A stretch of DNA of 64,000 nucleotides from Candidatus Poseidoniales archaeon (lineage in GTDB: Archaea > Thermoplasmatota > Poseidoniia > Poseidoniales > Poseidoniaceae), in NCBI GenBank assembly GCA_019651595.1, contig BOYQ01000005.1, positions 13,456-77,455 of the forward strand, read 5' to 3'. The position numbers and the translations under genes were made by a program. The notes under the pieces were generated by a model. The model saw nothing but the letters and a program-made list of their open reading frames with translations. It was not told where the DNA came from and made no database searches. Shown piece after piece: positions 9,610 to 57,231 of the stretch (its first letter is position 1; each line of letters starts with the position of its first letter).

Positions 9610-9711
9610 GATTCCCTGCCGAGGACCGAGACTCTTGAACCCTCGCCATGCGACCGTGGGACCTGACCGTTCAACCAATCCTTGATGAGGTTCCCCGGGC
9701 TGGAAGAAGCC

Positions 9712-12700: not shown

Positions 12701-15294
12701 CGTCCACTGAAATGGGTCGATTGGGCTGTGCGGACACCGACGGCGACGGCTACGCCGACGTTGACGATGCGTTTCCCAGTGAATCCACCCAATGGAACGA
12801 CACCGACGGCGACGGCTACGGCGACGAAGCCTCCGGATTCGAAGGGGATGCGTGCCCCGCCACCAGCGGCACCTCGATGCGAGACCGGTTCGGGTGCACC
12901 GACACGGACAACGACGGCTCCTCCGACGGGGACGCCAACTGGACGACGGCCAACGGGGCCGACATTGCGCCCAACGACAGCACGCAGTGGGCGGACAGCG
13001 ACGGGGACGGCTACGGTGACAACCCGTCCGGCACCAACGGAGACGCCTGTCCTTCGGTAGCAGGCACCTCGACCGCCGACCGGCGTGGTTGCCCCGACAC
13101 CGACGGTGACGGCTACTCGGACCCCGACGGTTCGTGGACCGTGGACAACGGCGCCGACGCCTACCCCAACGACCCCAACCGCTGGGGCGACAGCGACGGG
13201 GACGGCTACGACGACGGTTTGGACGACGATTGCCCGGCGCTTTTCGGCACCTCCGTTCACGACCGAAAGGGATGTCCGGACCAAGACGGTGATGGTTACT
13301 CCGACCCTGACAGCGGTTGGACGACCGCCAACGGCGCCGACGCCTTCATGACCGACTCAACGCAATGGAACGACACCGACGGCGACGGCTACGGCGACAA
13401 CCCGGCAGGTGCTGCACCCGATGCGTGTGTCAACACCTACGGTACGTCCTGGCAGAACGGCACCTACGGCTGTCCTGACGGCGACCAAGACGGGTGGGGA
13501 GACGACCAAGACACGCACCCCGCCGACCCAACCCAGTGGTCCGATGCCGACGGCGATGGCTACGGCGACAACCCCGGAGGTACCCTACCCGATGCCTGTC
13601 CGACGGTTTGGGGCAATTCCACACAGGGTAACCGACTGGGTTGCCTCGACAACGACGGTGACGGTTGGGACAACAGCATCGACGCCCTGCCCGACCTTCC
13701 AACGCAGTGGCTTGACCAAGACGGGGACGGCTACGGCGACAACGCCACCGGGATTCAACCCGACGCGTGTCCCGGCGAGGCTGGCACCTCAAGCATCGGC
13801 TTGTACGGTTGCGTTGACGATGACGGCGACGGCCACGCCAACCTGACGGATGATTTCCCCCTCGACCCCACCCGGTGGATCGACAGCGATGGCGACGGCT
13901 ACGACGATGCTGAGGATGCGTGCCCCTTCATCAACGGCAACTCCACTCAAGACCGGGTGGGATGCTTGGACACCGACGCTGATGGATTTTCAAACCCCAC
14001 GCCACCGGTTGGCAACAACAGCGGTTGGAACACCTCCAACGGCGCCGACGCCTTCCCCGACGAACCCACGCAGGCCGTGGACGGGGACGGGGACGGCTAC
14101 GGCGACAACCCCAGCGGCGTTGAAGCCGATGCCTGCCCGACCCAAGCCGGCTCCTCCAACGTCGACCGATTCGGCTGTGTGGACGAAGACGGTGACGGCA
14201 CCTCCGATGCCAGCGATGCGTTCCTCGGAAACCCGACCCAATGGATCGACACCGACGGCGACGGCTACGGCGACAACCCCAACGGCACCCAGGCCGATGC
14301 CTGCGTGGCGACGGTTGGAACGTCCACCGTGGACGTGTACGGCTGCACGGACGGCGACGGGGACGGTGCCAGCGATGCCAACGACCTCTGGCCCAACGAC
14401 GCCACGCAGTGGTTTGACAGCGACGGGGACGGCTACGGCGACGAGACCCAAGGGACGGACGGCGATGCCTGTCCAAACGATTTCGGCCCCTCAACCGCCA
14501 GCAACACCTTCGGGTGCCCCGACGGCGATGGCGACGGGTGGGCGGACCAGCAGGACGCGTTCCCCGACCAGCGGAGCCAACAAATGGACAGCGACGGGGA
14601 CGGCTACGGCGACAACGCCACGCTCGGCGCGTTCAAGCCCGACCACTGGCCCAACGATGCCTCTCGCAGTTCAGCCTCAGCCAGCATGACGTGCACGCCG
14701 GTTTCCATCGAGGTGGACCTGGCAGCGAGCGGGTGGTTCACCTTCACCTGCTCGGTCTCCACGTCCATGAGTTCCGCCTTTGCGGCCACCGTTTCGTGGC
14801 AGGCGACCTCGAGCATCGTGGGGGAATCCTCCGAACACTTCCTGACCTTTACAGCGGCGAGCGGAAACACCCAAGCCGTCACCTTCTCCGGCACCGCTGA
14901 AACCGTGGGTCAGCATCAACTGCTGCTTTCGGCGGCGGAACCGGGTGCTGAGAACCCAATGGACACGGTCGTGGTCGTGGTGGTGGCGACGGATTCCAAT
15001 GCGCCGATCGAAGTGGCCGATGAAACGGAGGGTTCGGTGCTTGAGACCATCACGGAAAGCACCGTGTTGCAGGCTGCCCTTGCCGGCTTGGTGCTCTTCG
15101 TGTTGATGGGGACGTTGATGATTCGTGGCCAAAGCCGACGAGCAAGGGACCAGGAACGCCGCATGATGCGAGCAGCAGAACTTCGACAAACTCGGGGTTT
15201 GGCCGACCTGCCGAACCGTGAAATGACTCAACCACGACCCGCCGAACGTCAGGTGCGAGGCGGGTCGATGTTCGATGATTTCCGTCGCCGGTGA
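9712..15294 (+). CDS. Secreted S8 (subtilisin-like) serine protease with a long thrombospondin type-3-like Ca-binding repeat region and C-terminal TM
   Basis: Catalytic triad motifs VADTG, HGTHVAG and GTSMATP; NDLDL beta-domain; dozens of DxDGDGxxD repeats; TM near the C-terminus. Confidence 0.93.
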   Translation: MQSHRRRTTGVFIALLLVKVLSPMAFAQPSEASSSTDTEAALAWLEQLNIAPSDAAQHGWVSPDQTASTTHLLYRDVGLIAPSDWTEETGQQRVEGFHILGHTYPVPSDWFLDLAAAGIDCYSFMPPASFHCDVSATTPAALAQLNVVGLAAMDVTDKVQTDLVRGLLGFEMVAPNPFVNQEGAVVNVVLSGETLPEGLNHRSGIALDSHSGRFATMALTPDSLAWLVQQEEIEWVEPRPFFEIMNSVGIEVMNVDDTWNSTNMANIDATWSGLDGSGVIVTVADTGLDNGVNNSNMHPDFRDHITGILSFPPAASTCASLSLSPCGDDAEDHHGHGTHVAGSVLGDGTHSNGAIIGAAPEAHLLVHSIATTHNGEEKLLGIPNNLDDLFKLAWANGSRVHTNSWGSAVAGQYTTSSMQADASARTHDEMVILFAAANEGADANRDGEIDLDSMGSPATAKNVLTVGASENDRSNMTWVWGSSDYGSPISTDRLADNPEGMAAFSSRGPTDDGRLKPDFSAPGTMILSTKSRSTTSVGWLAHNASYTYMGGTSMATPLTAGASALLLEHLMENLGETNPTSALVKAIFTASAHDMTGQYSSSTNGAGEAAPNNHEGWGRINMSQAINTSYLYGHSVVTNADSGWSFNVPASADDINIALTWTDPASTPSASTNLVNDLDLALKSPSGTWTNVSNNLDNLRGLTLGTPAQGTWELHVVGTSVPTGPQFFAVAMTGDYALTNLTQDADLDGYQDADDDCNTTAGTSTIDRTGCPDTDGDGYSNPDGNWTVNNGADAFPSETTQWADQDYDGYGDNAAGVQPDACVATAGNSTGDRFGCTDSDGDGYSNPDGSWTTANGADACSSVSGTSNQDRNGCADQDGDGYSDPDGSWGTTNGADAFPTDDTQWVDSDGDGYGDNPPPATTGDACPSTNGDSMNDRFGCTDSDGDGYSDPDSSWTVANGADAFASDATQWSDADSDGYGDNASGNSPDACPTQFGTSTEMGRLGCADTDGDGYADVDDAFPSESTQWNDTDGDGYGDEASGFEGDACPATSGTSMRDRFGCTDTDNDGSSDGDANWTTANGADIAPNDSTQWADSDGDGYGDNPSGTNGDACPSVAGTSTADRRGCPDTDGDGYSDPDGSWTVDNGADAYPNDPNRWGDSDGDGYDDGLDDDCPALFGTSVHDRKGCPDQDGDGYSDPDSGWTTANGADAFMTDSTQWNDTDGDGYGDNPAGAAPDACVNTYGTSWQNGTYGCPDGDQDGWGDDQDTHPADPTQWSDADGDGYGDNPGGTLPDACPTVWGNSTQGNRLGCLDNDGDGWDNSIDALPDLPTQWLDQDGDGYGDNATGIQPDACPGEAGTSSIGLYGCVDDDGDGHANLTDDFPLDPTRWIDSDGDGYDDAEDACPFINGNSTQDRVGCLDTDADGFSNPTPPVGNNSGWNTSNGADAFPDEPTQAVDGDGDGYGDNPSGVEADACPTQAGSSNVDRFGCVDEDGDGTSDASDAFLGNPTQWIDTDGDGYGDNPNGTQADACVATVGTSTVDVYGCTDGDGDGASDANDLWPNDATQWFDSDGDGYGDETQGTDGDACPNDFGPSTASNTFGCPDGDGDGWADQQDAFPDQRSQQMDSDGDGYGDNATLGAFKPDHWPNDASRSSASASMTCTPVSIEVDLAASGWFTFTCSVSTSMSSAFAATVSWQATSSIVGESSEHFLTFTAASGNTQAVTFSGTAETVGQHQLLLSAAEPGAENPMDTVVVVVVATDSNAPIEVADETEGSVLETITESTVLQAALAGLVLFVLMGTLMIRGQSRRARDQERRMMRAAELRQTRGLADLPNREMTQPRPAERQVRGGSMFDDFRRR
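11935..14660 (+). repeat. Intragenic tandem coding repeats (DxDGDG/TSP3-like)
   Basis: Recurring gacggcgacggctacggcgacaac-type units encoding QWxDxDGDGYGDN...DAC...DRxGCxDxDGDG. Confidence 0.9.
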
Positions 15295-15527: not shown

Positions 15528-16182
15528 ATGGATTTTCTCTCCCTTTGCTTGTTGACCTTGTGGTTGTACCTCCCCGGATTTCTTGCGAACACGTTCGCCA
15601 TGATGTGGGGCAAATGGTTGCCCAAAACCGGCTACGGCCCCTGGCCCATCGACGGTGGCCGAGTGATGGCGGACGGCCATCGAATGCTGGGCGATGGGAA
15701 AACGTGGAACGGTCTCATCGGCGGGTCCCTGACCTCCGGGCTGCTGTGCATGTTGCTGGCTTCGACCGTCGCCACGGGGGACGCAGCCACGGTCTTTGAC
15801 GACGGAGCCACCGTGTTCGCGGCATCCGCTCATCGGCGCTGAAGACGCATGGTTCTACATCGGTGGCGCCAACGGTGCAGCCTTTGTTTTGGGAACCTTC
15901 CTCGGGTTTGCATGCTTGGTGGGCGACAGCACGGGTTCGTTCTTCAAGCGCCGACGCGGCCTCAAGCGAGAGGGTGACATTTCTTCGAAAGCCCCGCTGT
16001 TGGACACGTTGCCGTTTGCAATCATGGTTTTTCTTTGGGGTCAGTTGTTCCTCGGGCCGTCGGTCTTGGCGTCAGAAGAATTGCGTCTGCCCATGCTGGC
16101 GCTGATCATCATCACCCCGGTGCTCCACCGCTCCTTCAACCTCATCGGCTACAAAATCGGGTGGAAAGATGTCCCGTATTGA
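15528..16182 (+). CDS. carS: CDP-archaeol synthase (frameshifted)
   Basis: YLPGFLANT, PIDGG..DG.RMLGDGKTWNG, then in the next frame GDSTGSFFKRRRG and PLLD; these are CarS motifs. Frame change near 15820. Confidence 0.9.
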
Positions 16183-17701: not shown

Positions 17702-19341
17702 ATGGTTGAAGCCATGACGTCCAGCGACGATGGCCTTCCAAACGGCCAACATCGCTACGTGGCCGTTGCGGCCGTGTCGGTCGGGTTTCTCCTCGCCTTC
17801 GCCGAGATGATCATCCGCCTGCTGGCAGGAAAAGACGTCGTTGACGCCGTGTGGCCGCACGCCTTGCGATCGCTCGACTGGACCATGACACTGCGTGAGT
17901 CCGCCGGCCTAACCGTCGCCTTGTTCGTCCTCATCGGCTTGGGCGGCTTCGGGTTGCGAAAAGCGATTTCATCCGCCGACAACCCGCCGTGGAAGCCGCT
18001 GGTTCAAGCCGGCCTCGGTTTGTTGATGGGGCTGATCGCCCTTCATTTTCTGTTGGACGTGTTCTACCTGCGTGGGGCCTTTCTCCTCCTGCCGACCCTG
18101 ATGGGTTGGGCCCTTGCCTGCCTCCTCATTGCGCTTGGAGGGGCACCCTCGCTTCGCGCTGCGGGTCAGGACAGGGTCGCTACCACTCGACTGCTTCACA
18201 TGACGGGCGTGTTTTTCGCAGCGTGGTTGGTGATGCCGGGAGTTCCAGCCGTCATGGGCTTTGCGCCCTCGCCACCGGACGCTCCAGCCATGGGCTACGG
18301 TTCGAACCCCGGCCCGTACACGGTGCAACAATACCGGTCGCCCTACACGCTTCCCGACGAGGTCATCGCCGTTCAGGGCGAACTGGAGAACGACGTGGAG
18401 TGGAGCGTGTACGTCACCCTGCCCGATCTCCCCGAAGATTCACCCGTCACCCATCTGCCCCTGGCCGTTCTCCTGCACGGTTTCAGTTATCCTGACATCG
18501 ATGCCTATCAGGGCTGGATCACCCACTTGACAGCGAAAGGCATGGCGGTAGCGTTCATCCAATACCCCTCCGACCTGCGACCCCAAGGGTTTGAAGACCA
18601 CACAGCCACGTACGCCGACGGCATGTCGGACTACCTCCAACACACCTACCGAGACCTTGCCATACGGGCGGCTCTCGACCACCTCGACCGCTGCTGATGG
18701 GGCCAGATCGTCACCCGAACTCGACGCCCACCTCGGGGCGGTCACGGTCGACCCAACCACGCTGTGGGCGGGGTGGGCACAGCCTTGGAGCAGCCTACAC
18801 CTTCCTGACCCTGAACGCAGCCTTTGAGCGCGGGTGGGGTTCCCGCGCCCTTGTCGTTGCCCTCGAAGCCCCTGCCAGCCGACCCATGCAGCCCAACCTC
18901 CAGCCCAACCTCACGGGCATGCCTGAGGAGACGCTCATCCAAATCGGCATTCCACAGGATGACATGAGCGTGGGTCGCTGCCCGGGAGGCTTTCACCAAC
19001 AGGTGTTTTCTGCCCTCCCCGAAGAACGAAACCAGGTGATTGAAATTCAATCCGACCATTACGGCTTTCCACGGCTGGTCGCCAGCCACTACCTCCAAAC
19101 CGACCCCGTCCGGGACCGACTCGCCGATTGGAGTTTTTACCGAAGGATTGACGCCCAGGCGGACTACCTCGTCGCTCACGGTCGCAACGACACGTTCACC
19201 GCCGATTGGGCGTTCCAATACATGACGGACGAAACCATGCTGACAGGGATGGGGAAATGGTCGGACGGCACCCCGGTCTTGCCGTTGCTTTGGCATCGGA
19301 ACGCCATCGATGAGGTCGCCAGTTTCGCAAGCTGCACCTGA
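17702..19341 (+). CDS. Membrane-anchored alpha/beta hydrolase (frameshifted)
   Basis: About five N-terminal TM helices; LLHGF oxyanion motif; GHSLG nucleophile elbow in the continuing ORF 18697-19341; candidate catalytic D (QDD) and H (ASH). Confidence 0.8.
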
Positions 19342-19379: not shown

Positions 19380-19805
19380 ATGGCCGAAGGGACCGTTTCC
19401 AGCGATGTCAAATCGCTTTGGAAGTGGATCGGCGGGTCCGCCTTCTTGGCCTCAATGTGCTGTTTCCCAAGCGTCGTCCTGGTCATGTTCGGTTTGGCCA
19501 GCATCTCCAGCGCTGCAGCCCTTTCCAACGATTTGTACTGGGGCACAAACGGCATGGGTTGGTTCAGGCCAATGTTGCTGGTGTTGAGCACGCTGCTCGT
19601 GTTGATTGGGCTGGTCATGTATTTCCGCAAGGAGGGCATCTGCAGCCTCGATGAAGCCCGACGTCAGCGAAAACGAATCCTGAACACCTCCCTGTTGGTG
19701 CTTTCGCTGTCCCTTGTGTCCTACATCGTTTTCAATTTCGTGATTTTGACCGAAATTGGCGTGGCGTTGGACCTGCCGTGGGAAAGCAGCCGTCTTTGGA
19801 ACTGA
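19380..19805 (+). CDS. Small 3-TM membrane protein with vicinal cysteines (MerT-like)
   Basis: ASMCCFP in TM1, a further Cys after TM2, three hydrophobic helices. Confidence 0.6.
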   Translation: MAEGTVSSDVKSLWKWIGGSAFLASMCCFPSVVLVMFGLASISSAAALSNDLYWGTNGMGWFRPMLLVLSTLLVLIGLVMYFRKEGICSLDEARRQRKRILNTSLLVLSLSLVSYIVFNFVILTEIGVALDLPWESSRLWN

Positions 19806-20567
19806 TCACGAACCACTGCGTGTGGTTTTGCACCCCACACCCCAGTCCGGATCGGCTTCCATGGCTGAACGGGTGGCCTCCAACAGCACCTCCTCCGGCG
19901 TGAGAACCGGCACGTCAGCAGGCCGCGTGGCCAGGGAGCAATGGTAGCCGTTTTCGTGCCAATAATTCAATTGAATTTTTGAATTTTCAATTGAAATAGT
20001 TGCTGATTCTTTCCCAATTGGAATTTGGATGTTTCTCGGATTGAGGTGCATGCCATGACCGAGGCATTTCTGGACGGCTTCCTTGCCGGTCCATGCCTGA
20101 AAGACATGCTGAGGTGTGCTTCGCAAGGCGTCCAGTTCTGCACCTTTCGCCATCATGTCGTAGGCGTTCTCTGCCAGTTGTCGACCGAGCGGTTCGGCGT
20201 CAAAGCCCACGGCCCGGTCCGATTCCACCAGGGCAACGAACGCCATCCCGTCACTGTGAGCGATGGAGATGTTGGGCAGCGGCGTCCGCTTCCACACACC
20301 TTGGATGTAGGCGAGGGAAGGCGCCCTGCGATCGTTTCTGACCACCTCCACGACGGTGAGGTCGCCAACGCCCCAAGCCCTGAGACCCTGCCCCAGCAGC
20401 CACCGTCCCGTCAAGTGTTCATCACGCCGCTTTTGGGTGACAAAACGCTCAACCTCTGACGCTTGTGCGAGCGGAACCTCCTCCATGTTCCAGGCCCGAA
20501 CCTCAGAGGCGAGCAGTTGAACCCCTGAGGCTCGGGGAGGCGTCAGGCGAACCACCGGCGGGAGCAT
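19806..20567 (-). CDS. 4'-phosphopantetheinyl transferase (Sfp-type)
   Basis: NISIAHS, VGFDAE and WTGKEAVQKCLG motifs; lies immediately downstream of the PKS. Confidence 0.9.
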   Translation of the reverse strand: MLPPVVRLTPPRASGVQLLASEVRAWNMEEVPLAQASEVERFVTQKRRDEHLTGRWLLGQGLRAWGVGDLTVVEVVRNDRRAPSLAYIQGVWKRTPLPNISIAHSDGMAFVALVESDRAVGFDAEPLGRQLAENAYDMMAKGAELDALRSTPQHVFQAWTGKEAVQKCLGHGMHLNPRNIQIPIGKESATISIENSKIQLNYWHENGYHCSLATRPADVPVLTPEEVLLEATRSAMEADPDWGVGCKTTRSGS

Positions 20568-20577
20568 TCGAGGAACC

Positions 20578-23500
20578 TCACCGTTCAAGGGAGAAGCGTT
20601 GGTCTTCAGCGACGTTGGCCATCGCTTTCAGGCGGAGCCCTTTGAGCGCCATAACCGGGGCGTCGTCGTCGCCCACGATCAGCACGTCGTGGACCGTCGT
20701 ACCGTCGTCAAGGGCGTCGTGTTGAACGGTTCGCAGCCTGAGCGTTTCGTCGGCTTCGGGGACGCGAAGCATCGTTGACCATTCAATCCCGACCGGAAGG
20801 CTGCTGTAGCCGAGGATTTCCATGGCCACCAGGCCGGCGTTCTGGAACCCGGCTTCAATGAGCATCGGCAGCGCTTCCAACAACACGGGTTCGCCGGCCT
20901 GTTCCAGAGCGAACTGATCTGAGGCTGGCAGTTGGTGGCGCATCAGGGCCAAACCGTCGATGCCCGGCCCGGCAACGTCTCCCGAACCGGCGAGGACGCC
21001 GCCATGGGATTGGAAACGAGGGCCGTGGAAATACCGGTCGTAAATGAAGGAAGGCGGGTGCATCAAGGACCCCATGGGTGGCGTACCGATGGTCGGCAGC
21101 GCCTCCACCTCGCGCTGGAGGAACGGTCGCAGGTCGTCGTGCTTGGCGACCAGTCGAACAAGGGCTTCGTGGTGCTCGCGTTCACCAAACACTTCGCCTT
21201 TTGAGTTCATCAAATCCGAGACCAAACGGCATCGAACCCAAGTCAAATCGCCGTCCGTTCGGTCGACCTCGGCTTCAACGCGAACCGTCATCGGGCCCTT
21301 GATGAGTTTGACCGGCAAACCAAACGTGACGGCTTCAAAGCCGGCAAGGCAACTCGATGGATGCAAGAGAAGAGAGGTTTGTGCGAACATCTCCAAGGCC
21401 ATGACGCCGGGGTGGTAGGGAACGCCTTCGATGGCGTGGTCCACAAGGAACGGATGGTCGTCGGTGGACAGGGTGCTTTGTGTGGTGAGACGCACCCCTT
21501 CTTCCAAGGCCAGCACCTTGTCCACGAAGGGGAAACGCGTCGGGTCCGCCATCGCCGCAGCCATTTCGGCAGGCAATTTGAGCGGCGCTTCTCGGAAGGA
21601 GGAAAACCGGTCCATCAGGCCCAGCGAACCGCAGCCCAAAACCCGGCGTTTGCCGCCTCTGAGGGCTTCATCAACGAAGATCGCCACGCCGTCTTCAACC
21701 GCAAGGGTCTCGATGCCCGCAGCCGCAAACACCGCCTCAATGGACCCGCGCGTGGCCATGCCAACGTCGCGCCAGCCGGTCCAACCGATGGCGACGGCTC
21801 GGCAGTCATGGGCCGCCGTCAGGCGAGCCATTTCTGCATCCAACACCGAGTTGGCCGCCGCGTAATCGGTTTGGCCGCCGTTGCCAAACCGCCCTGCAAC
21901 GCTGGTAAAGCAACACGCAAACGTCGGTGCATCGCGACCGGAAGCCTTCACTGCGGTGAGCAAGGATTGCCAGCCGTCGACCTTGACCCGGACAACCCGG
22001 TCAAACACATCGTAGCCCTTGTCGGCCACCAATTTGGAATCCTCGAGACCTGCGCCGTGAACAACACCCGTGATGGGGCGCCCCAGACCCTCGCCCAGGG
22101 CTTCAAGCGCCGAACGGTCCATCACGTCAACGGCGTGATAGGTGGCGTGGTTACCCGTTTGTTCGATGGCGTTCAAGGTGAGGTACACGTCTCGACTTCG
22201 AGTGAACCGCTGCCATGCACGGTTCCATTCGACCATCGTGACCTTGCCGTTTTCGCTTGCATCAATGAGACGTTGCCGAAGGGCGTTCTTCTCTTCACCG
22301 AGTTGCTCGTCCGTCCAATCAATCCATGTTGCCGTTGATTCGATGAGCGTTGAACGACCGAGCAATTCGAAATGAGCACCCGCGTTCTGGCTTGCTTCCG
22401 CTACACCGATGACGGAGGCGGCTGTGACGCCCGAACCCCCACCCGAAACCAACCACGTGTCATCGGAGGTCAGGGGCTGAAGGTCCTCAACAACATCCTC
22501 TGCAAAGGCCACCAGCGCCCAGCGACGACCGTCCCGGTCCAACCCGACCTCAACCTCACCGGCCAAGCCGAACAGGTCATCCTCGATTCGCTTGGCTGCC
22601 TCAACTTCGTCGAGCACGAATTCGGGATGCAGGTCCAGCGCCCGGCAACGGAGATCGGGCCGTTCAAAGGCATAGGATTTGGTGACACCGCTGGCCGCAC
22701 ATTGGACGGCGTTGAAACGATCACCGAGATTGCCGTGCCGACCGTCGAGGGACGTCACGGAAGCGACGACACCCGGTTGATCAACAGAGAGTTGCCCGCC
22801 AAGCTCCTTGAGGAGGCCGAACCATCCGTGGGCCGCCAAGGCGATTTGGGAAGACGGGTAGGAGTCTTCCTCCACTGCTCCGATGCGAGTTTCAGCGGGG
22901 CCAGGTGCACGAGCCCCGCCAGCGGTGTCCCGTCGAGTTGTTGAGCAATCCACGCCAGGTGTTCGGGTTGTTCCGGGTCGGCCCGGTAGACCGTTCGCTC
23001 ACCCTCGTCGTGGCGTGATGCATCGCGGATGCGACTCTCAAAGCCGATGCGGACAGCGGCCAATCCACGGGCTTCCATTCGCTGGCAGAAAGCCTCAGCG
23101 ATGCCCCACCCGTCGTCGGACACGACGATGGTCCCGCCACGTCAAGCGGCGCAGGTTCACCGGGACAGTCCTCGATTTCAACCTGCCATCGGCGGGTCCC
23201 CGCCTGATGCGATGTCGGACGTTCGGCCGCCATCGCACCAGCGCTGGCTTCCGCGACGGAAGCCTCAGCGGGCGGCGAGGACGCATTGGTTTCGCCGCCA
23301 CGCATCTGACGATGTAGGCCGTGAAATGATTGAGCGTGGGGTGGTCTGCGAGCACGAAGTCCTCGTCGACGGGTAACGAGAACCGGTCCCGAATCTCGGC
23401 CATGATCTCGGCCTGCTTGACCGTGTCAATGCCCAGCTCGCCCTCGAGGTCCTGGTCCATTTCGATGAAGTCCGCCGGGTAGCCGGTGTGGTCAACCACC

Positions 23501-26500
23501 ACCGAAACCAGCACGTCCTCAATGTCGCTGTGAGACCCGGTTGCGACGGAAGGAGCAGGGGTTGGGGTTGGTGCAGGGGTGGGGGGCGCAGGAGCGGGGG
23601 CTGCCGGAGCAGGGGCAGGCACCAGAGCAGCCGGCGCACCGCCTGTCATCCGTTGGATGTAGCCAATCATGTGGTTGAGGGTGGGGTGGTCGGCCAGGAC
23701 GAAATCTTCGTCCACCGGGAGAGCGAACTTGTCGCGGATGTCCGCCATGATCTCGGCCTGTTTCACCGTATCAATCCCCAACTCACCTTCCAAATCCTGG
23801 TCAGTTCATGAAATCAGCGGGATAGCCCGTGTGTTCCACCACCACGGCCACGACCGTGGCGGTCATTTCGGCATCGTCGACCACGGCGGCGGGTGCTGGA
23901 ACGGGCACTTCGGTTGCAGCGATGGGAGCCGTTTCCGGAGCACTGGGGGCAGGCTCGGGGGCCGGGGCGGAGGGCGCAACGGCCTGTTCACCACCGGTCA
24001 TGCGCTGGATGTAGCCGATCATGTGGTTGAGCGTCGGGTAGTCCGCCAGAACGAAATCCTCGTCAACGGGCAGGCCGAAACGCTCTCGAATGTCGGCCAT
24101 GATTTCGGCTTGTTTGACCGTGTCAATGCCCAATTCCCCTTCGAGGTCTTGGTCGAGTTCGACGAAGTCGGCCGGATAACCGGTGTGATGAACCACCACG
24201 TCAATGACGGTCTTCACCATCTCTTCGTCGCCCACCACGGCGCTGCAGCGACGGGCGCCTCGGGCGGTGCAGGTGCTGGCGCAGCCACCGGCTCAGGCTT
24301 GACCGCCGGCGTTGGTGGCGCAGCGGCGGGCTCGGGTTCGGCCGATGCCGGCGAAGGTTTCCCTTCCCACGGAGCGGTGGCGGGCCAGGGTTCGCCCTGC
24401 ACTCCACCGTGGAGATTGTCATCGCCGTTGACGTAGGCCACGAGTTTGTTTTGCAAGACCCGCATCACGACATCGTCGGTTCCGGCGAGGCTTCGAGCCC
24501 AAGCCAACAACCGGGCCCCGTCAATGCGCTCGCCCTCAACGGGCCAGGCTCGCAAGAGCGACAGGGCGATTTGCGAGCCGAATCCGGCAGCGAACCGAAG
24601 TCCGTACTCCAATTCGGGGTAGTGGCCGCCCTTCGAGAGGTTCAGGTCGCCCAGTTCGGGGTCCTTCTCCTTGTGATTGGCGATGGGTGGGATGCGGCCG
24701 GTCTTCAGGCCGTAGAGCATGCTGGCGTCTTCGATGCCAACCGCCATCGGATGGCCGGTGAACCCCTTGGTGTTGGCCACCACGAGTTTGTTGGTGGAAT
24801 CGCCGAAGGTGTCGCGCAGGGCCTTGACCTCGGACTGAGCGGAACCGCCTCGGGCAGGCGTGTAGGTTTCGTGGGAGAAAAACACGGTGTTGGGGGCCAT
24901 CGCGTGCCGGTCAAGACCCCACCGTCGTTCCATGTCGGTGATGAAGCCGTTGACGACTTGCCCCACGTGCTCGACGTCCAACCGTGTCCCGTGGTAGGCG
25001 GAATTGGCCGTGGTCGAACCGAGGACCTCGGCGATGGGTTGCACACCACGCTGTTTCGCCTCGGAGTGCCGTTCGATGACAAACGCAGCGGCGCCCATGC
25101 CGAGGATCAACCCGTTGCGACGGCGGTCAAACGGCAGGGCGGTTTCCTCGACCACGTTGTTCGTAGCGGCGGCGCCGGACGCTGCGAAGCCGCCCGCAAT
25201 CCATTCCCAAAGGTCGTCGCCGGTGACGTCGTCACCGCTGATGATGACCACGCGGTCGACGCGGTCGGCGTCAAGCCAGTCTTCCGCTACGCCGAACGCT
25301 GCAGTAGCGGAGGCGCATGCGAGGTTGATGGTGGTGTTTGGACCACGAATCCCCGTGTACTGAGCGAATTGGGAATGCCCCATGTTGAGGGTTTGGAAGA
25401 GGTAGCGTCGGTCAAAGCGACCCTCGCCATCATCCCCGTTGGTTTTGGCGTGCTTGACACCCATCTGAAGGCCGGGGAAACACGAGGAAAACACGATACC
25501 GGTGCGTTCCCGCTGAACTTGAGGGACCTGCCAGTTTCGGATCAATCGCAAGCCTCCTTTGCCAATCTGTTCCACCGGTGTGAGCGGAATACCGGCATCC
25601 CGAAGCGCCAGCAGTCCGGAAGCGACCGCCAGCTGGGTGCTGATGTCCCATGCGAGGATGGCTTTGGGATCGATGCCGAATTCTTCGGCGAGGTCAAAGG
25701 CGCCTTTCAGGCCGGCCAGTTGAGGAATGTCACCAAACACCTTGGCCTGGTCCATGTTGACCGAGCCGTCTCGCCCTTTGATGAGCCGGACGATGTTCTT
25801 GTCCAGAAGGCGTTGCTTGTATTCGTCCGAGACTTCGCTGATGCAGGTCTCGCCTCGAACCAGTTTCTCAAACGCATCCTCTGAGAACACCCGGTCCATG
25901 CCGGGCAAGCCCAACGAAATGCCCGTGACCACGTAGGGGTCCACGTCCCGCCGAGAGGCGGTGCTGAGGGCGCTCACGGTGTGAACGGGCGCCGCCTTCA
26001 ATGAAACGGGAGAAGCGACCGACGTCATGGGCGCCCATGCGGCGGGCGGTGAGCGGACCCATCGATTCAGGTCACCCGCTGTTGTGGCGGTCGTTCCGTC
26101 GTACTCCGGGTCGGTTTGAGCCTCCGAGGCAATCGTGGCCACGACGCTCTGCACCTGTTGGGCCGTCAAACCCAGACCCTCGATCAGCGACACATGGCCG
26201 TGACAGAACGAGGCAGGATAGCCGCTGTAGGCCGCAATCCGATCGCCGACGTAGGCACGAATCGCCCGATCACGTGCGTAATCCGAATCCATCGGACCGG
26301 CTTGCACCGTTGCGGAGGCGGCCGCCACGGGTGCACCGGTGCCGCTCCCGGGAAGGGGTCGGGCGCGGGTACGAAGGGATTCCAGGGCGGCAGAATCGTG
26401 GGGTGGGACGATCGACGATGCCGAGCGCGCTTCAATGGGTCCGGCCTTGAAGCCGTCCTGCAGCGCGTCAGAATCCAGGCCGGGCCAAACGGGCGGTCGA

Positions 26501-29391
26501 CCGGCGAGCGCCAGGGCACCGATGGCGGTCAGCAAACTTGCAATGCCGCCTTGCTTGGGGTGGTTGGTCATCACGGGAACGTGAGGTTGACCCTCGAGGA
26601 TTTGCATGGCAAACATGGTCAGCGCTCGTTTCGGCCCGACTTCGACAAACAGGCGGCCACCGGCATCGTACATGGTTTGGATTTGCTTCGTCCACTCCAC
26701 CGATGAAGCCATTTGAGGGGCAAGTTGTTCCAAAATGGCCGCCTTCGAATCCACCCCCTCCATGGGGTAGAACGAACCGTCAACGTTGGCGGTGATGGGG
26801 ACGGATGGCCACCGAATCTCCAAGCCCTCGAGGAAACGGCGGAGCGGTTCGTTGGCCGGTGCGACGATGCGGGAGTGGAAGGCATGGGAGGTGGCCAGCG
26901 CAACACACGAGAATCCTTCGGCTTCAAAGGTCGCCATGGCCGCCTTGACGGGTGCCGTTTCACCCGCTATGACGGTCATCTTAGGGGAGTTTTTGTTGGC
27001 CGCAATCACGTAGCCTTCGGTCGCCTCGAGCACGCGTTCTACGACGTCATACGGTGCCGTTACGCTGGCCATTAACCCCTTGTCGTCGATTTCCACGGAA
27101 CCCATCTCGGTCCCACGGGCGGCCGCTGCACGAAGGGCGCCGTCCATGTCGAGGATGCCCGAAGACATCAGCGCTGCGTATTCACCCAGCGAGTGGCCGG
27201 CCACCATGTCCGGGGCGTGGCCAAAGGCGCCCAAGGTTCGCTCGATGGCCAAATCGGCCGTGAGCATGGCCGGCTGCGTGTACTCGGTTTGCTTGAGTTT
27301 GTTTTCCGCTTCTTTCAATTCCTCTTTGCTGAGGGTGGTGCGCAACACGAAGCCGGAGAGCGTTTCACCGCCCAGCACGTCGACCATGGTTTCATCGGCT
27401 TGGCGCCAAACGTCTGCGGGGGCGGTGAAGCGTTGAACCAAGTCAGCCGTCATGCCGACGTACTGACTGCCTTGGCCGGGGTACATGTGGACGGTTTTTG
27501 CTTCGGCAGGCATGGCGGGCTGGTCGGTGATCAAGACGCCTTGTGCCTGAAGGAAACCCCATTTGTCGGGGTCCATCATCGCCTGACCTGCGAGGGTTTG
27601 TCGCTTGTTGAATTCCGCCCACGAGGTGGCGACCAGCGCCAGCCTGTAGGGTGCCTGAGGGTCAAAGGAGGTGCTGGCCTCCTGAAGAGCCTCCGAAAGA
27701 CGTCGTCCCCTCGGATCGTCGTCAAAGAGCGGGCCGTCAAAGGACACGGCCCCCAGCGTGGCACTCAAGCCGTCCAGCGAAGCGGCAGAAAGGAGAAGGA
27801 CACCGCCTTCAACGGCCTTGATTTCCTCGTGGGTCATCGTGGCGGCAAGGGTCCCGTCAAAGATGGACGGGGCTTCCGCAGGACCTTGCCCGCTGTAGGC
27901 GGCCCAGCGAGCGTCCCATTCCGCTGCCATGGGCGCGTGGAAATCGGGCTCGTAGCCTTCCAGGGCCACGTGGAAGTTCGTGCCACCGAACCCGAAGGCC
28001 GAGACGCCGGCTCTGCGAGGATGGGCAGCCGGGCGGGGCCATTCGAGGGGAGCGGTGGGAACGAAGAACGGAATGTTGGACCAGTCCACCGTTGGATTGG
28101 GCGTCTCAAAATTCGCACTTGGAGGGATGGTTCGGTGGTGAAGGGCCATCACGGATTTCAGAATACCGGCCATCCCGGCTGCCGCCTTCAGGTGCCCGAT
28201 TTGGGACTTGATGGAACCAACGGCCACGTTGCCCGGACCATCAACACCGGTCCACAATCGGGACAAGGTGGACAATTCGGTGGCGTCACCCACCTTCGTC
28301 GACGTCCCGTGTGCTTCCACCAGTTCAACGCTGGATGCATCATAGCCGGCTTGGCTGTAGGCTCGGGCAATCGCTTGGATTTGGCCGCGTTGGCTGGGAG
28401 CGGTGATCCCCTTTCCTCGCCCGTCGGAGGAGCCCCCGATGCCGCGTATGACGCTGAAAATCTCGTCCTCGTCCCGCATGGCATCGCTCAGTCGCTTGAG
28501 AACGAGAACGCCGGCACCTTCGCCCATCACGAACCCGTTGGCACGAGCATCAAACGGCGAGGAGTGGCTGGGTGAAAGAGCACCAATGGCTGAAAATTTG
28601 GCAAACGTCGCAGGGTCCATCGTGCGGTCGGAGGCCCCGGCGAGCATGACGTCGACTTGACGCGTCTGCAAAAGGCGGCAGGCATCTAACACCGCCGCCA
28701 TGGAAGAAGCGCATGCAGCGTCCATGGCGTGGTTGGGCCCTTGAAGGTCGAGCAGGTTCGCCACACGACCCGAGACCACGTTCGCAAGTTCACCCGGCAT
28801 GGTGTCCTCATCCACGCGAGGGGCGCCTTCGAGCATGGCCTCGGTGAAGCCCTCGACCTGACCCTCGGGGAGGCCGTGGGACTTGGCCAGCGTGACGGTG
28901 TGGTTTGACCACACGCGAAGGTTGGACAGGTTGCGGTTTTCGCCGCCCAAGGCGTTGGCAAACACCACGCCGGTTCGCGTTCGGTCGATGTCTTTGGTCT
29001 CGCCGTCGTAGCCCGCATGTTCAATGGCGTCCGCCGAGACCGTGACGGCCCACAACTGGCAGGGATCGATCTGTGGCAGGGTGCCGGGGGGTTGTCGCCA
29101 TCGACGCCAGTCGAACTCGGCATCGGCCACAACGGCCCCGATTTTTGCATAGGAGTAGCCCTCCGTGTGCGAGCCCGGACCGCCTTCTTTCCAGAAGTGA
29201 TCGATCGGTCCCGGCCATCGGCCGTCCGGCAGTGGTCGAATGCTGACCTTGGCGTCCAGGATGTTCTGCCAGAAGGCCTCGATGTCGTGGGCATCGGGCA
29301 TCAGCGCCCCCAAGCCGATGACCGCAATGGGCTCAAAGGGACCCTGGTCAACCCCTTCGCAGGGTTTGCCGTCTTCCGTCGTCAAGCCCAT
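20578..29391 (-). CDS. Iterative type I polyketide/fatty-acid synthase (PfaA-like): KS-AT-(degenerate ACP)-KS-ACPx3-KR-DH, about 2,900 aa, split by about five indels
   Basis: KS1 DAACASS/EAHGTST/GHLKAAAG; AT PGQGSQ/GHSLGE/HAFHS; KS2 NLACAS/SHETYT/GHPM; three ELGIDTVKQAE ACPs; KR SGGGSG...YAAAN; DH DHAIEGVPYHPG and FHGPRFQ. Frame changes near 24240, 23805, 23305, 23135 and 22870. Confidence 0.92.
23305..24225 (-). repeat. Three tandem ACP-encoding repeats separated by Pro/Ala-rich linkers
   Basis: Near-identical HTGYPADF.E.DQDLEGELGIDTVKQAEIMA.IR..F.LPVDEDFVLAD.PTLNH units. Confidence 0.9.
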
Positions 29392-29400
29392 GCTTTCACC

Positions 29401-30192
29401 TCAGTTCATGATGCTCTCCGGCACCATCGTGATCGAATACCCAGCATCGACGTAGATGCACTGGCCGGTCACGCCCGCCGCCAGCGGGCTGGCAAGCCAG
29501 AGGGTTGCGCCCGCCACATCGTCTTGGCTGACGTTCCTTCGCAGCGGCGCGTTGGCTTCAACGTGGTCGAGAATGCGGTCGAAGCCAGGAATGCCGCTGG
29601 CGGCAATGGTCCTGATGGGGCCCGACGAAATGGCGTTCACACGATGACCTTCGGGCCCGAGGTGGCAAGCCAATTCCCTCGTCCAGCACTCCAAGGCCGC
29701 CTTGGCCATGGACATGATGCCGTAGCTCGGAACGTAGCGGTTGGAGGCGGCGTACGTCAGCGTGATGGTGGACGAGCCCGGGTTCAAGTAGGGAAGGGCG
29801 TGCTTGAGGCAACGCTGCAACGAGTTGGCCGAGATGGTCATGGCGGTGTTGATGTCCTGGTCCTCCACGAAGAGAACGGGGCGGTCAAAGCACGCCCGAG
29901 GAGCAAAGCCGATGGCATGAACCAGAATGTCTGCTTTTTTCCCGGGGTGCTCAGCGGCAAAGGCGGTGAAGAATTCCTGCGTGGTCGCATCCGAAGCAAC
30001 GTCCAACGGGTAAAATCCTCCGATGGCCGGAAGTTGGTCCTTGAGTTTGAAGACTCGACTCATGAAGCGCTTCTGGTACCCCAAATACAGGGTCACGCCA
30101 GCAGCAGCCAGTTGCTTGCAAATCGCCCAGGCGATGGAATCCTCACTGGCCACACCGAACACAAAGGCCGTTTTTCCTTGGAGCCCGAGCAT
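29401..30192 (-). CDS. fabI: Enoyl-ACP reductase FabI
   Basis: GVASEDSIAWAI, HAIGFAP, catalytic YGIMSMAKAALE, RVNAISSGPIRTIAASGI and VDAG; 9 bp upstream of the PKS start. Confidence 0.93.
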   Translation of the reverse strand: MLGLQGKTAFVFGVASEDSIAWAICKQLAAAGVTLYLGYQKRFMSRVFKLKDQLPAIGGFYPLDVASDATTQEFFTAFAAEHPGKKADILVHAIGFAPRACFDRPVLFVEDQDINTAMTISANSLQRCLKHALPYLNPGSSTITLTYAASNRYVPSYGIMSMAKAALECWTRELACHLGPEGHRVNAISSGPIRTIAASGIPGFDRILDHVEANAPLRRNVSQDDVAGATLWLASPLAAGVTGQCIYVDAGYSITMVPESIMN

Positions 30193-30309
30193 GAAAAACC
30201 TCCGTGGGGATAAGGTGTAGTGCCCTACACCAAGCCTTTGAGCGTTGCTCATGAAATCGTGTCACATCGACCGAGTTAGCGGTGCGGGACCAACGGCCAA
30301 ATCTCGGCC

Positions 30310-33705: not shown

Positions 33706-36700
33706 TCACTGGTTGTTGACCCAATCCTGAAGCGATTCAACGGTCCAGCCTTGGTCAAAGTAGCCTTGAATCTCCTCTTGGCTCCACTGGGGGAACTGTT
33801 GCATGGCTCGCGCCATTTCGGGATCGACATCTGCAGGAATCTGGGCAAGTACCTTGCTCTCACCGTAGCCTTCGTCGTCGTCTTCTTCCTCGTACTCCTC
33901 ATCGAGCATCGATGAGCCACCGCCTCGGCGAGCGAGCACGAAGACGAGGGTCCCGAGAACACCGATGACGGCGACCAGGATGACAACAATGAGCAACAGG
34001 TTGGAACTGTCTTCTTCCGCTTGGACCTTGACGTTGAACACGTCAGCCCACTGGCCTTGAGAACCGTCGTAGATACTCTCGCTTGAGCCGTTCAGGCTGA
34101 TGGTGTAGTACATCCCGGTGGTCTGTGCGGCAAACGGTGCGAGGGTGACGTCAACCCAATCGCTCACTTCTTGGATGCCCAGTTCAGGCACGGTGACCGT
34201 GTCTTCTACGACGGGCGTGCCGCTGTCGGTGACCGACTTGATGACCAATTCAGCGACCCCGGCCATGGAACCGGTGTTCTTGACCTTGATGCGGAGCTTC
34301 ATGCTCTCACCGACACGGGGGTCCTCGCTCAGGAGAACGTCCTGAATCTCGAATGTGGCCTTCTCTTCAATGAAGGTGTATTCCGATTTGTGCTGGGCTT
34401 GGCCGGAGAAGATCGGCAAGACGCTGCCGTCTTCCTGAGGGCCACCGCCCAAGCGAACCGTTGAACCGGCCGAGTCGGCACCCGAGATCCAGAACACCAG
34501 CGTGGGCTGGTTGGCTTCGTTGACCTCGGCGTCAAAGACACGTGGCTCGTTGTCGGACAGGGGCCACAGGTCGAGGCAGGTCGCCGATGCAAGGTAGCCA
34601 CCGCTGAGGGTGCTCAGCGACAAGGTAGCGGATGAGGGTTCAAACCCGAAGTATTCGGCGTATTCAGACCACGGCGTGTAGTCGATGGTGTTGCTGTAGA
34701 ACATCCAATTCACCTGCAAGTCGCCGGGGAACATGGCTTCCTGTTCCTTGATTTGAGCCTGAATGTCAACGCAGTGGTAGTTGGCGGTCGACAGGGTGTT
34801 GGCGATGATGCGGTCGTTGGCGCCGGTGGGCAGAGCACCTTTCTCAGCGAGCCAGGTGTTGGCCAACACCTCGGGCGGCGTCCGGTCAACCTTCAGCGTG
34901 AACTCGCCGCACCCGTAGGAGGTGGACGTGGCGCAAAGGGCGGCCGTGAAGTCTTCTGCGCCTGCTGGCAAATTGATCAGACGGTAGGTGTAGGTGTACT
35001 CGTTGGTGAACACCGGTGCGGTGATGTTGATGTCAAAGACACCGCCGGTGAACGAATGGGTGATGACTTCTCCGGGTGTTGCGATGTAGCCCTTGTTGAA
35101 ATCTTCAGACGCATCCTGCCGAGTAATTTCCATGGTCAATTCGACTTCAGGGTTGATGTAGACGCTGTCAAAGATACCCTCGCGGAAGGCAAATTGTCCC
35201 GCAAAGCGAACGGTATCGCCCGCGAAGATGAACCCTTCACGCACGTCGCTGGTGAACGGGTCGCTGACGTCCTCAAACATGGGCGTGACCATCAGGTTGT
35301 TGACCTCATCCGTGCGGAAGTCGAGCTGGATGCCGTCGCTGTATCGCCAAATCTGGATGTAGCGGCCGGGGACACCGGACAGCATCGTGTAGAGCGGGTT
35401 GTCAAGGTCTTGCATTTGGAGTCGCGGTTCGATGTCCTTTCCGTCAAGTCCAACGATGCCCCAGTCGATTCGAATGGGGATGTCAAGGATGAAGTCGGAT
35501 TCGAACGGGTCGATAAGGGCCGTGCCGTCCATGGTCAGCATGGACGGTGCCACGTCTTCATCTTCGACGATTTCGATGTGGGGGCTGTCGGTCCAAGCGG
35601 TCTGGTTGCGTGGGAAGTACCAGACGGTCATGTCGTCAGCGGTCTTGTCCAAGTTGACCTGGAAGAAGTCCACGTCTCGCCAACCGTTGTCGTCGCTGGC
35701 TTCCAAAACGAGGTGGTAGGTGTTCCCGGCGTACATGGTTTGGTTCCACGTGCCGTCCCACTGAAGTTCGTTTGAGTTGAGGAAACCGCTTCCCTTCGAG
35801 TCTTCGATGAAGAAGTTGCGAATCACCGGCGTCTTGGACGACATGGACACGTAGGTGACCTGGTCGTTGTCGAAGCCAGGTCCACCGCCGTTGATCGGGT
35901 TTCCAGCGAGGTCGTAGCCCTCGATCCACAAGGACACCTTACCCTCCAGACCTTCGTTGGCCAAATCGTTGTAATTTCCGGAGTAGTTGGCCGTGGGAGC
36001 CTCTCCGTCGCCGTTCAAGGTCAGCGTGATGTACTCGTCAGCATCGGGCAAACCGTCGCTGTTGGCGTCGTGGTCGTTCTCAACCCAGAGGTGGAGGTCG
36101 AGGCTCGCTGGTGGGCTGGGCAGGTCTTGGCTGGCCATGCGGATTTGCTGATTGGCCTGCGGGACCACCCACGTGTCGTCGACCAGGGTTCGCCAGTTCG
36201 AGTCCACGTTGGCGTCGGTTCCAGGACTGAGCACTTGGATATCGAGGAGGTTGGGCTCGTAGGTGTCGATGGTGATGTCGAACGGAATGGCACAGGTTTC
36301 GTCGGGGTTGTATTGCGACGGAGGGCACAGCAGGTCGCCGCCTTCGTAGCCACGGACGGCGAAGCGGTAGGTCTCGCTGCCGGCTACGGCGCCAAGATCA
36401 ACGTTCCAGTTGAAGTCCCCGCCGATCACACCGGAGCGGTTGGCGACCTCTTCCCACTCGACGGTGATGTTGCCGTCGGTGGTGTTCACGTGCTTGAGTT
36501 CGAGCACGAGGAAGTAAGCGCTGGGGTCTGGAGCCTCGTTGAGGTCCTGAAGGCGAATCTGGCCGATGAGGTTGATGTCTTGACCCGATTCCGCGCCGCT
36601 CAGGGACTGCGGGGCGCCGATGCTGTTCTGCAGTTCGAAGGACGTGATGCCCGCATCGTTTTCGACGGCATTACCAACCGAGGGGTCGAGGAGCACGGCG

Positions 36701-39576: not shown

Positions 39577-39707
39577 GGTGTCACCTGCGCCCTTGCGAAG
39601 GTTTGTCCCCCTAAAATCTCGTCGCTTTCAAGACATCCTCGTCGTTTCGGCCCCTTGTCCCTCAAGCGGTGAACATGAGTTATGAGGGTGAACGGGTTGG
39701 AAGCGGC

Positions 39708-40178
39708 ATGGAGCCTTACTCAACCGAGCCCGTGACCCTCATCGAAGAAGTGTTTCCGCAGGACACCAACGCCTACAACACCCTGTTTGGTGGACGGCTC
39801 CTGTCCCTGATGGACAAAGCGGGCGGCATCGCATGCGCTAAATTCGCCCATCGAGAGTTCGTCACCATCTCCATCGACACCCTGACGTTCATTGCGCCCG
39901 CCCGCCAAGGCGATCTCCTCGAAGTGTCCGGTCAAGTGGTCTACACGAGCAGTCATACCGCCTGCACGAAGGTGACCGCCTACACCATGAGCAAAGCCAC
40001 CTGGGAGAAGAGCATCATCTGCGAGGGCTACTTCTTCTTCGTCGCCATCGACTCCATGATGCGCCCCATCCCGGTGCCGCAGTTCACGCCGCACACCGAG
40101 GAGGAACACACCGAGTGGGAGAAGGCGAAAGCCATTCGGGAGAACATGCTTGCCCAGAAAGCGAAACGAGAAGCCTGA
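39708..40178 (+). CDS. Acyl-CoA thioesterase (hotdog fold, YciA-like)
   Basis: VFPQDTNAYNTLFGGRLLSLMD and FFFVAID motifs. Confidence 0.92.
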   Translation: MEPYSTEPVTLIEEVFPQDTNAYNTLFGGRLLSLMDKAGGIACAKFAHREFVTISIDTLTFIAPARQGDLLEVSGQVVYTSSHTACTKVTAYTMSKATWEKSIICEGYFFFVAIDSMMRPIPVPQFTPHTEEEHTEWEKAKAIRENMLAQKAKREA

Positions 40179-57208: not shown

Positions 57209-57231
57209 GCCCTGAGCCAACGGGATTGGCA

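Follow-up and report, generated by a model that had tools for sequence, protein, structure and literature searches.

Among the PfaA-like synthases, the kind designated Type R (Shulse and Allen 2011; PMC3098273) consists of a single pfaA homolog with the domain order ketosynthase (KS), malonyl acyltransferase (MAT), chain-length factor (CLF), three to six acyl carrier proteins (ACPs) and ketoreductase (KR), followed downstream by a gene for a phosphopantetheinyl transferase (PPTase). The sections of that study devoted to the type report it from Roseiflexus, Koribacter, Solibacter and Elusimicrobium and give its product as uncharacterised, and the word 'archaea' does not occur in the paper. A cluster of this general build is encoded on a 64-kb stretch of DNA from a Candidatus Poseidoniales archaeon (assembly GCA_019651595.1, contig BOYQ01000005.1, positions 13,456 to 77,455), hereafter called the window. 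It comprises genes for a FabI-type enoyl-ACP reductase, a type I megasynthase and an Sfp-type PPTase. It is close to certain that the three genes form an intact archaeal module working as a unit, and this module probably represents a vertically inherited, iterative type I fatty-acyl ('secondary lipid') synthase of the Type R or PfaA-like kind. The Poseidoniales, or Marine Group II, are uncultured and are among the commonest microbes of the surface ocean. The genes and domains of the cluster, in the order of transcription, are as follows.

29401–30192, minus strand: FabI-type enoyl-ACP reductase, proposed to act in trans as the enoyl reductase (ER) (Pfam adh_short_C2; NCBIfam FabI models)
20578–29391, minus strand: type I KS-AT-(degenerate ACP)-KS-ACP3-KR-DH megasynthase, about 2,940 aa with six missing bases allowed for (Pfam)
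28105–29334, minus strand: KS1, PfaA-type ketosynthase (PF00109 and PF02801, residues 20–429)
26590–27492, minus strand: acyltransferase (AT) with GHSLGE and HAFH motifs (PF00698, residues 634–934)
26077–26265, minus strand: degenerate ACP-like stretch ('xACP') between the AT and KS2 (weak BLASTP similarity to the ACPs of the same gene)
24565–25932, minus strand: KS2, FabF-like second ketosynthase (PF00109, 52.5 bits)
24008–24208, 23656–23805 and 23311–23514, minus strand: three tandem ACPs (PF00550, three matches)
21766–22194, minus strand: KR catalytic subdomain with GGGSGVTA and YAAAN (PF08659, 86 bits)
20605–21531, minus strand: polyketide synthase (PKS)-type dehydratase (DH) with HxxxGxxxxP, YFHGPRF and ExxFQ (PF21089, 33.2 bits)
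19806–20588, minus strand: Sfp-type 4′-phosphopantetheinyl transferase (PF01648)

The three open reading frames (ORFs) are tightly packed and co-directional (minus strand, 19806–30252), with the synthase ATG separated from the FabI stop by 9 bp and, depending on which PPTase start is used, an overlap of 11 nt or a gap of 10 nt at the synthase/PPTase junction. A preliminary description made from the sequence alone had proposed such a minus-strand operon with a spacing of about 10 bp and a synthase of the anatomy KS-AT-xACP-KS-ACP3-KR-DH, and both proposals are borne out by the ORFs and by the order of the Pfam domains. In described architecture, rather than by clustering with Type R reference sequences, the cluster resembles Type R: a single pfaA-like gene carries the KS-MAT-'CLF'-ACP-KR order, here as KS, AT, second KS, three ACPs, KR and then DH, and a PPTase gene lies downstream of it (the PF01648 ORF at 19806–20588). 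The differences from Type R are the archaeal host, the FabI gene upstream and the presence of the DH after the KR.

Both ketosynthases appear catalytically complete. The translation of KS1 contains DAACASS, EAHGTST and KSQIGH, which provide the Cys, His and His, respectively, whereas in KS2, whose best solved relative is the T. thermophilus FabF (1j3n, 94.5 bits), the ACAS, HETYT and GH motifs align on the catalytic Cys, His and His of FabF. Since the triad is retained, KS2 does not strictly qualify as a chain-length factor; the position that is labelled 'CLF' in the Type R scheme (PMC3098273) here keeps its catalytic Cys. Besides KS1 and KS2, ketosynthase matches in the source genome are limited to two weak ones to PF00109 (approximately 26–27 bits). 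This genome has a marker completeness of 64% in 12 contigs, a limit that applies to all genome-wide absences given below. The HAFH of the AT is a malonyl-type motif, and the domain scores 190 bits with the NCBIfam FabD model, under the cut-off of 260.9. The xACP between the AT and KS2 is confirmed as a weak, degenerate ACP-like stretch with an Ala at the attachment position; it shares 24% identity with the gene's own ACPs (E 7e-4 in a four-sequence BLASTP search) and gives no Pfam match, and the homolog P0148 has a true ACP at the same position. The Gly-rich loop and the YAAAN motif are present in the KR, and the DH, which scores 18.7 bits with PF14765 and thus stays under the cut-off of that model, carries a Glu where an Asp stands in many PKS dehydratases. 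Neither a FabA-type isomerising dehydratase nor an ER in cis was found in the synthase or the cluster.

The FabI ORF extends over 29401–30252, but its orthologs align only from residue 19–21 on, and in several of them a stop codon lies upstream of that point, so that the start is probably the internal Met at 30192, the end coordinate already given in the preliminary description. The protein scores 235.7 bits with Pfam adh_short_C2 (cut-off 27, 7e-70), and its top twelve NCBIfam matches are all FabI models, all under their cut-offs. The catalytic motif of FabI is Tyr-x6-Lys, which is present as YGIMSMAK. Identity within the genus is 92–99%, falling to 87–88% in two more distant same-genus loci. 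The PPTase ORF is 260 aa long, within the approximately 230–270 aa of two-lobed Sfp-type enzymes, and scores 38.4 bits with PF01648 (ACPS; cut-off 25, 1.4e-9) and 23.9 bits with PF17837 (4PPT_N), under the cut-off of 27; it is the sole PF01648 match in the genome. Compared with the nearest species ortholog, dN/dS is 0.04–0.05 for the synthase (about 8.8 kb), 0.01 for FabI and 0.18 for the PPTase, rough values with dS above 1 in the comparison. By these estimates purifying selection on the module appears strong.

As assembled, the synthase is out of frame: tblastn against an intact ortholog gives five frame changes between approximately 22866 and 24358. The contigs of DNA runs locate the underlying changes as follows.

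22871, 23132, 23306, 23801, 23807 and 24237/8, no strand assigned: six single-base deletions of the assembly, breaking the synthase frame (contigs of DNA runs)

In contigs of the DNA runs X1, X2 and X3, each from a different study, one extra base is present at all six sites, and in every run all of the depth at each site carries an inserted base, split at 24237/8 over two adjacent positions. The inserted letter differs among the contigs at some of the sites, and no other indels were reported in the run contigs over 19700–30300 (10.6 kb). At 22871 the extra base is present in contigs of the RNA library X17 as well. The database protein P0001 is intact at 2,939 aa and 99% identical to the first 1,725 residues of the window synthase, and the intact synthase ORFs of relatives measure 2,700–2,970 aa (2,924–2,970 aa within the genus). 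Because the three DNA runs restore every site and an intact protein of 99% identity exists, the breaks are best explained as assembly errors, in agreement with the preliminary description, which had not taken the indels for the signs of a pseudogene; intactness is deduced here from the contigs of other runs and from orthologs rather than from reads of the window's own sample. No long homopolymer is involved at the six sites, all of them short runs, and a collapse of tandem repeats as the cause of the frameshifts was rejected, Tandem Repeats Finder having found no array.

Frame breaks are also seen in unrelated genes. An ORF of about 220 aa is split at 15821–15823, a 553-aa ORF of relatives is divided in the window into 17702–18697 and 18697–19341 (break at approximately 18685–18773), and the same has happened to a PlsC-like gene in another part of the genome (G000:C3:97625–98007). 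These further breaks suggest single-base deletions throughout the assembly, which fits the 64% completeness in 12 contigs. A pseudogene in this strain, with all six deletions real, would account for the window sequence being out of frame at five places, yet it is very improbable. Against it stand the restoration of every site at full depth in all three runs and studies, the 99% identity to the intact P0001 outside the breaks, and a sum of the six deletions that is zero modulo three; moreover, the broken genes nearby, together with the low completeness, are typical of an unpolished long-read consensus.

The module is also firmly rooted in its archaeal setting. The synthase is found in 200 of the 301 genomes of the order Poseidoniales, namely in 148 of 149 genomes of Poseidoniaceae (family f1), in both genomes of family f2 and in 49 of 149 genomes of the Thalassarchaeaceae-like family f3, and in all 43 same-genus genomes; it also lies on single contigs of 2.0–2.1 Mb. 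The GC content is level across the cluster (0.617–0.629 over 20–30 kb, within the range of 0.554–0.657 over the whole window), and the archaeal genes for PCNA (341–1081) and Cdc6 (47537–48778) lie in the same window. The absence of a compositional break and the archaeal neighbours noted in the preliminary description are thereby upheld, except for carS, which was not found among the window ORFs scanned, a scan that took in part of the ORFs. Near-identical proteins bear the NCBI names Poseidonia, Poseidoniaceae, Thalassarchaeaceae, Poseidoniales and 'Euryarchaeota/Methanobacteriota archaeon', and a scan of genome contigs with P0121, the nearest representative of the sister group, returned only Poseidoniales-type loci at 44–58% identity.

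Bacterial DNA misjoined or misbinned into an archaeal genome would be in line with the fact that all close homologs outside Thermoplasmatota are bacterial, the named ones belonging to Chloroflexota (including Chloroflexales), Myxococcales/'Deltaproteobacteria', Leptospiraceae and Kineosporiaceae, and with the bacterial labels, Verrucomicrobiales and Yoonia, on two of the 55 related contigs. The chance of this is nevertheless minute in view of the near-universal presence in the family and the genus, the contigs of up to about 2 Mb, the neighbouring PCNA and Cdc6 genes, the level GC content, the Poseidoniales or euryarchaeote labels on the other 53 contigs, and contigs of other runs that bridge FabI into the upstream flank; the locus is thus not chimeric, in keeping with the preliminary description. 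The two bacterially labelled contigs, L047 ('Verrucomicrobiales bacterium') and L078 ('Yoonia sp.'), carry a Poseidoniales-type synthase and are probably mis-binned.

The three genes are inherited together. FabI is found in 197 and PF01648 in 192 of the 301 genomes of the order, and at the level of genera the pattern is all-or-none, in counts that come from related genomes: all three genes occur in the same 20 of 26 genera, while synthase, FabI and PF01648 matches are all missing from the other six (0/18, 0/22, 0/11, 0/24, 0/14 and 0/9; 98 genomes). The six module-free genera all have small genomes of 1.2–1.7 Mb. The nine Poseidoniales rows of a KS2 tree (FastTree) group together in a single clade (support 96), inside which the three families are set apart from one another, a topology that fits vertical descent with loss. 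The clade is placed inside a bacterial radiation in which most rows are unlabelled. Homologs of 41–47% identity are present in further Thermoplasmatota families (f10, 9/9; f19, 20/20; f28, 6/6; f29, 19/19), their rows in the tree standing apart from Poseidoniales among the unlabelled ones, and none were found in f6 (0/48) and f16 (0/54), all of these counts coming from a search with a stricter first look. In ten loci of such other families (L027–L036), the homologs are 3,000–3,800 aa long, with a fused C-terminal PPTase in seven and a fused N-terminal ER in two; L029 has an adjacent FabI, too.

The proposed role of FabI as the ER of the synthase is backed by gene order and gene fusions. FabI adjoins the synthase in all 25 Poseidoniales loci that cover the respective flank, and the survey of synteny that the preliminary description had called for found the order FabI-synthase-PPTase kept in 15 of the 16 loci with both flanks, the PPTase not being detected in the remaining one (L018). 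A C-terminal PPTase is present in 43 of 206 long homologs, an N-terminal ER-like domain in 20 and both in nine, and P0145, which is closely related to an archaeal locus, is shown by Pfam to have an NMO domain (PfaD-type ER) and an ACPS domain fused to the synthase. Since fused and adjacent arrangements are both found, different lineages appear to meet the synthase's need for an ER and a PPTase by either fusion or adjacency. Together with the gain and loss of FabI and synthase in step among genera, this pattern strongly backs the earlier suggestion of a trans-acting ER, for which it constitutes the strongest computational support.

The most unusual feature of the synthase lies in its carrier domains. 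All three ACPs read LGIDTVKQAEIM, with a Thr at the phosphopantetheine position that aligns with the modified Ser of solved ACPs (HMMER alignment), and the cores of ACP1 and ACP2 contain no Ser at all. To our knowledge, every ACP studied has a Ser at the attachment site, and in E. coli a Ser-to-Thr mutant of ACP is not modified by AcpS. The Thr extends to nearly all members of the family: of the 206 long homologs, 199 are Thr-only, five Ser-only, and two combine Ser-ACPs with Thr-ACPs in the same protein. Loci from two genera of family f3, Marine Group IIb (MGIIb), account for two of the five Ser-only homologs, and of the 84 loci that cover an ACP region 81 are Thr-only. Apart from the three ACPs of the synthase, the genome has no PF00550 phosphopantetheine-binding domain. 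As purifying selection is strong and the dedicated PPTase has no other client in the genome, we think that the Thr may well carry the phosphopantetheine arm. The Thr, the catalytic triad of KS2 and the loss of the module in six small-genome genera had all been missed in the preliminary description.

If Thr could not take the arm, the synthase would no longer work as a carrier-dependent enzyme and the gene would be kept for some other role, as the replacement of the conserved Ser in all three ACPs and the lack of any Ser in two of them might imply. Such an outcome is improbable: the 199 Thr-only homologs all have the full set of catalytic domains, two proteins combine both kinds of ACP, the PPTase is adjacent or fused to the synthase and is lost together with it, and the synthase has a dN/dS of 0.04–0.05 over its entire length. 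A PPTase without another client would, furthermore, be pointless if it was unable to act on these ACPs.

On this basis a course of synthesis by an active, carrier-dependent module can be proposed. First, the cluster's own Sfp-type PPTase would activate the three tandem ACPs, and the AT would load malonyl units. Next, the PfaA-like KS1 and the FabF-like KS2, both complete by motif, would extend the chain, probably covering different chain-length ranges by analogy with polyunsaturated fatty acid (PUFA) synthases. The KR and the PKS-type DH would then yield trans-2-enoyl-ACP, which the adjacent FabI would reduce in trans. Finally, as FabI completes the reductive cycle and no FabA-type isomerase is present, the simplest product expected is a straight acyl chain, saturated or nearly so, assembled from malonyl units. 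Release is not encoded in the cluster, and the chain would probably be passed to an acyltransferase or cut by a hotdog thioesterase. Overall, a fully reduced fatty-acyl chain is the likelier outcome of the module.

The main competing possibility, to which we give a distinctly smaller yet considerable share, is a product other than a plain saturated fatty acid, namely a lipid that is only partly reduced or is specialised in some other way. Long-chain acids bearing a hydroxy or enoyl group come into question, as do precursors of a glycolipid, a hydrocarbon or an alkyl diol; FabI would be engaged in only some of the cycles, and the product would have a conditional role, for example as a surface, storage, buoyancy or stress lipid. 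The bacterial homologs of the synthase occur in Chloroflexota, Myxococcales and other groups, and Chloroflexota, Myxococcales and the like are known for unusual lipids. The module is also dispensable in six genera and has two active-looking KS domains, and the characterised PfaA-like relatives treated in PMC3098273 make PUFA, heterocyst glycolipid and phenolic lipid, tandem ACPs being a hallmark of such synthases according to the same source. In favour of the saturated acyl chain are a KR-DH-ER set with no member missing, FabI being the most constrained of the three genes, and the lack of any tailoring genes conserved beside the cluster.

Contigs of the RNA library X17 with at least 95% identity lie on the synthase, which is a weak hint at its expression; they leave 28196–30300 and several other bins uncovered and have no bearing on the expression of FabI. 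Several points weigh against the fatty-acyl synthase as proposed. The X17 contigs could come from contaminating DNA. The best FabI model (NF005615) scores 219.8 bits against a cut-off of 391, and the ACPs have Thr in place of the Ser of canonical ACPs, a linkage to phosphopantetheine for which no precedent was found in one literature search. The cluster contains no thioesterase or other release domain. A PlsC-type acyltransferase (PF01553) occurs in 167 of the 167 genomes of the order that are at least 85% complete, including those of synthase-free genera. Since the module is missing from six genera, its product is not essential to membranes across the order, and because the genomes are related, the independent losses behind the co-occurrence may number only one or a few, perhaps one or two. 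Lastly, no later paper on Type R was found, nor a product for any of its members.

Regarding the supply of precursors, a biotin carboxylase is encoded in the window (43744–45084, minus strand) and two carboxyltransferase loci are present in the genome, which together could supply malonyl-CoA. GpsA-like and PlsC-like genes are present in the source genome as well. A role of PlsC as a dedicated off-loader finds no support: its occurrence in genera with and without the synthase indicates that it is not specifically tied to it. In the PF01553 search (order-wide; G000:C1:84322–84648 in the source genome), the synthase-bearing genera of Marine Group IIa mostly have three PlsC-family matches, including an ORF of about 540 aa, and the MGIIb genera of family f3 without the synthase have one or two, a correlation that is imperfect (g13 and g15 have two) and serves only as a lead. 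A hotdog thioesterase of the 4HBT family, with a possible release activity, is encoded 9 kb from the cluster (39669–40178, plus strand).

The neighbours of the cluster are a peptidase, TatD and a secreted 'choice-of-anchor T' protein. Elsewhere in the window are a fused PPAT and DUF359 ORF (50514–51533, minus strand), which we take to belong to the CoA pathway and which may supply CoA, an enoyl-CoA hydratase (56342–57322, minus strand) and two giant ORFs, one of 1,870 aa with a subtilase S8 domain (9682–15294, plus strand) and the other of 1,956 aa with no Pfam match (33706–39576, minus strand).

The destination of the acyl chain touches upon the question of archaeal membrane lipids. Marine Group II is described as having no glycerol-1-phosphate (G1P) dehydrogenase and as possessing a glycerol-3-phosphate (G3P) dehydrogenase and PlsC, in statements made in PMC6461757 and PMC6962369; the enzyme for the archaeal G1P backbone is likewise given as missing from Poseidoniales in the relevant passages of Rinke (2019), and their membrane lipids are called unknown in those of Besseling (2020). 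An ACP-independent archaeal fatty-acid synthesis has been proposed, as has a 'mixed membrane' hypothesis for Marine Group II (Villanueva 2017, as cited in PMC6461757 and PMC6962369). These proposals concern the same organisms and the same question, whereas the module described here is ACP-dependent and of type I. A broader and more tentative idea, which we consider rather unlikely as a whole, is that the entire Type R family, in bacteria and archaea alike, uses Thr in place of Ser as the phosphopantetheine site, with dedicated PPTases adjacent or fused to the synthase, and that the Marine Group II module is a de novo fatty-acyl synthase feeding G3P-based ester lipids or mixed ether/ester lipids. 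If true, the most abundant archaea of the surface ocean would straddle the lipid divide. A conserved and self-sufficient ACP-dependent acyl-chain synthase offers a three-gene target that makes the 'mixed membrane' idea testable, and a defined candidate lipid source to seek in the ocean.

Among the characterised systems, the PUFA synthases (PfaABCD with PfaE) share with the archaeal module the PfaA-like KS-AT-tandem ACP-KR-DH backbone and a dedicated Sfp-type PPTase. They differ in that PfaB, PfaC and PfaD have no counterpart here (for a PfaC- or FabA-type DH the comparison covers the cluster, not the genome), the second KS of the module is fused in cis, its ER is of the FabI type, its ACPs carry Thr, and its product would be expected to be free of cis double bonds. 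The best NCBIfam match to the synthase is to the PfaA model TIGR02813 at 845.1 bits, under the cut-off of 1010.1, and the genome gives no match to PF03060 (NMO), the family of PfaD-type ERs; a canonical PUFA synthase is rejected on these grounds, as had already been concluded in the preliminary description.

The ArsA/ArsD system of Azotobacter is a PfaA-like iterative synthase in which saturated long acyl chains are kept on the ACP and handed on without a thioesterase. It is the type I fatty acid synthase for phenolic lipids listed as 'Type P' in PMC3098273. The likeness lies in the PfaA-like iterative synthase; the difference is that the Ars system feeds type III PKSs, an arrangement that finds no support here, no PF00195 match having been found in the genome. 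The heterocyst glycolipid synthase HglE/HglC/HglD ('Type F' in PMC3098273) shares the tandem ACPs, the lack of a FabA-type DH and a reduced long-chain product, and differs in having KS-CLF-AT on a separate protein, a PfaD-type ER and a role in cyanobacterial cell differentiation.

In the literature on marine archaea, type I polyketide synthases (T1PKS) are given as the second largest class of biosynthetic gene clusters in the part of PMC10304266 that treats them, and the corresponding text of a preprint (10.1101/2022.12.20.521206) reports PKS transcripts from four Thermoplasmatota metagenome-assembled genomes. The terms 'polyketide' and 'acyl carrier' are absent from Rinke 2019 and Tully 2019, two large comparative papers on Marine Group II, and no paper describing the cluster in archaea was found in a search confined to main texts, with the possibility that Villanueva 2017 mentions the gene. 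The novelty seen in the cluster by the preliminary description thus holds only in part: the architecture with its downstream PPTase was described as Type R in 2011 and T1PKS had already been counted in marine archaea, whereas the archaeal, FabI-coupled cluster was not met with in print. As far as the searches show, the same is true of the pattern of joint loss and of the Thr-bearing ACPs, which draw attention to a large uncharacterised family of bacterial and archaeal synthases with Thr in their carrier domains. Among the known systems, the Poseidoniales cluster fits the already described but unstudied Type R kind, to which it adds a FabI.

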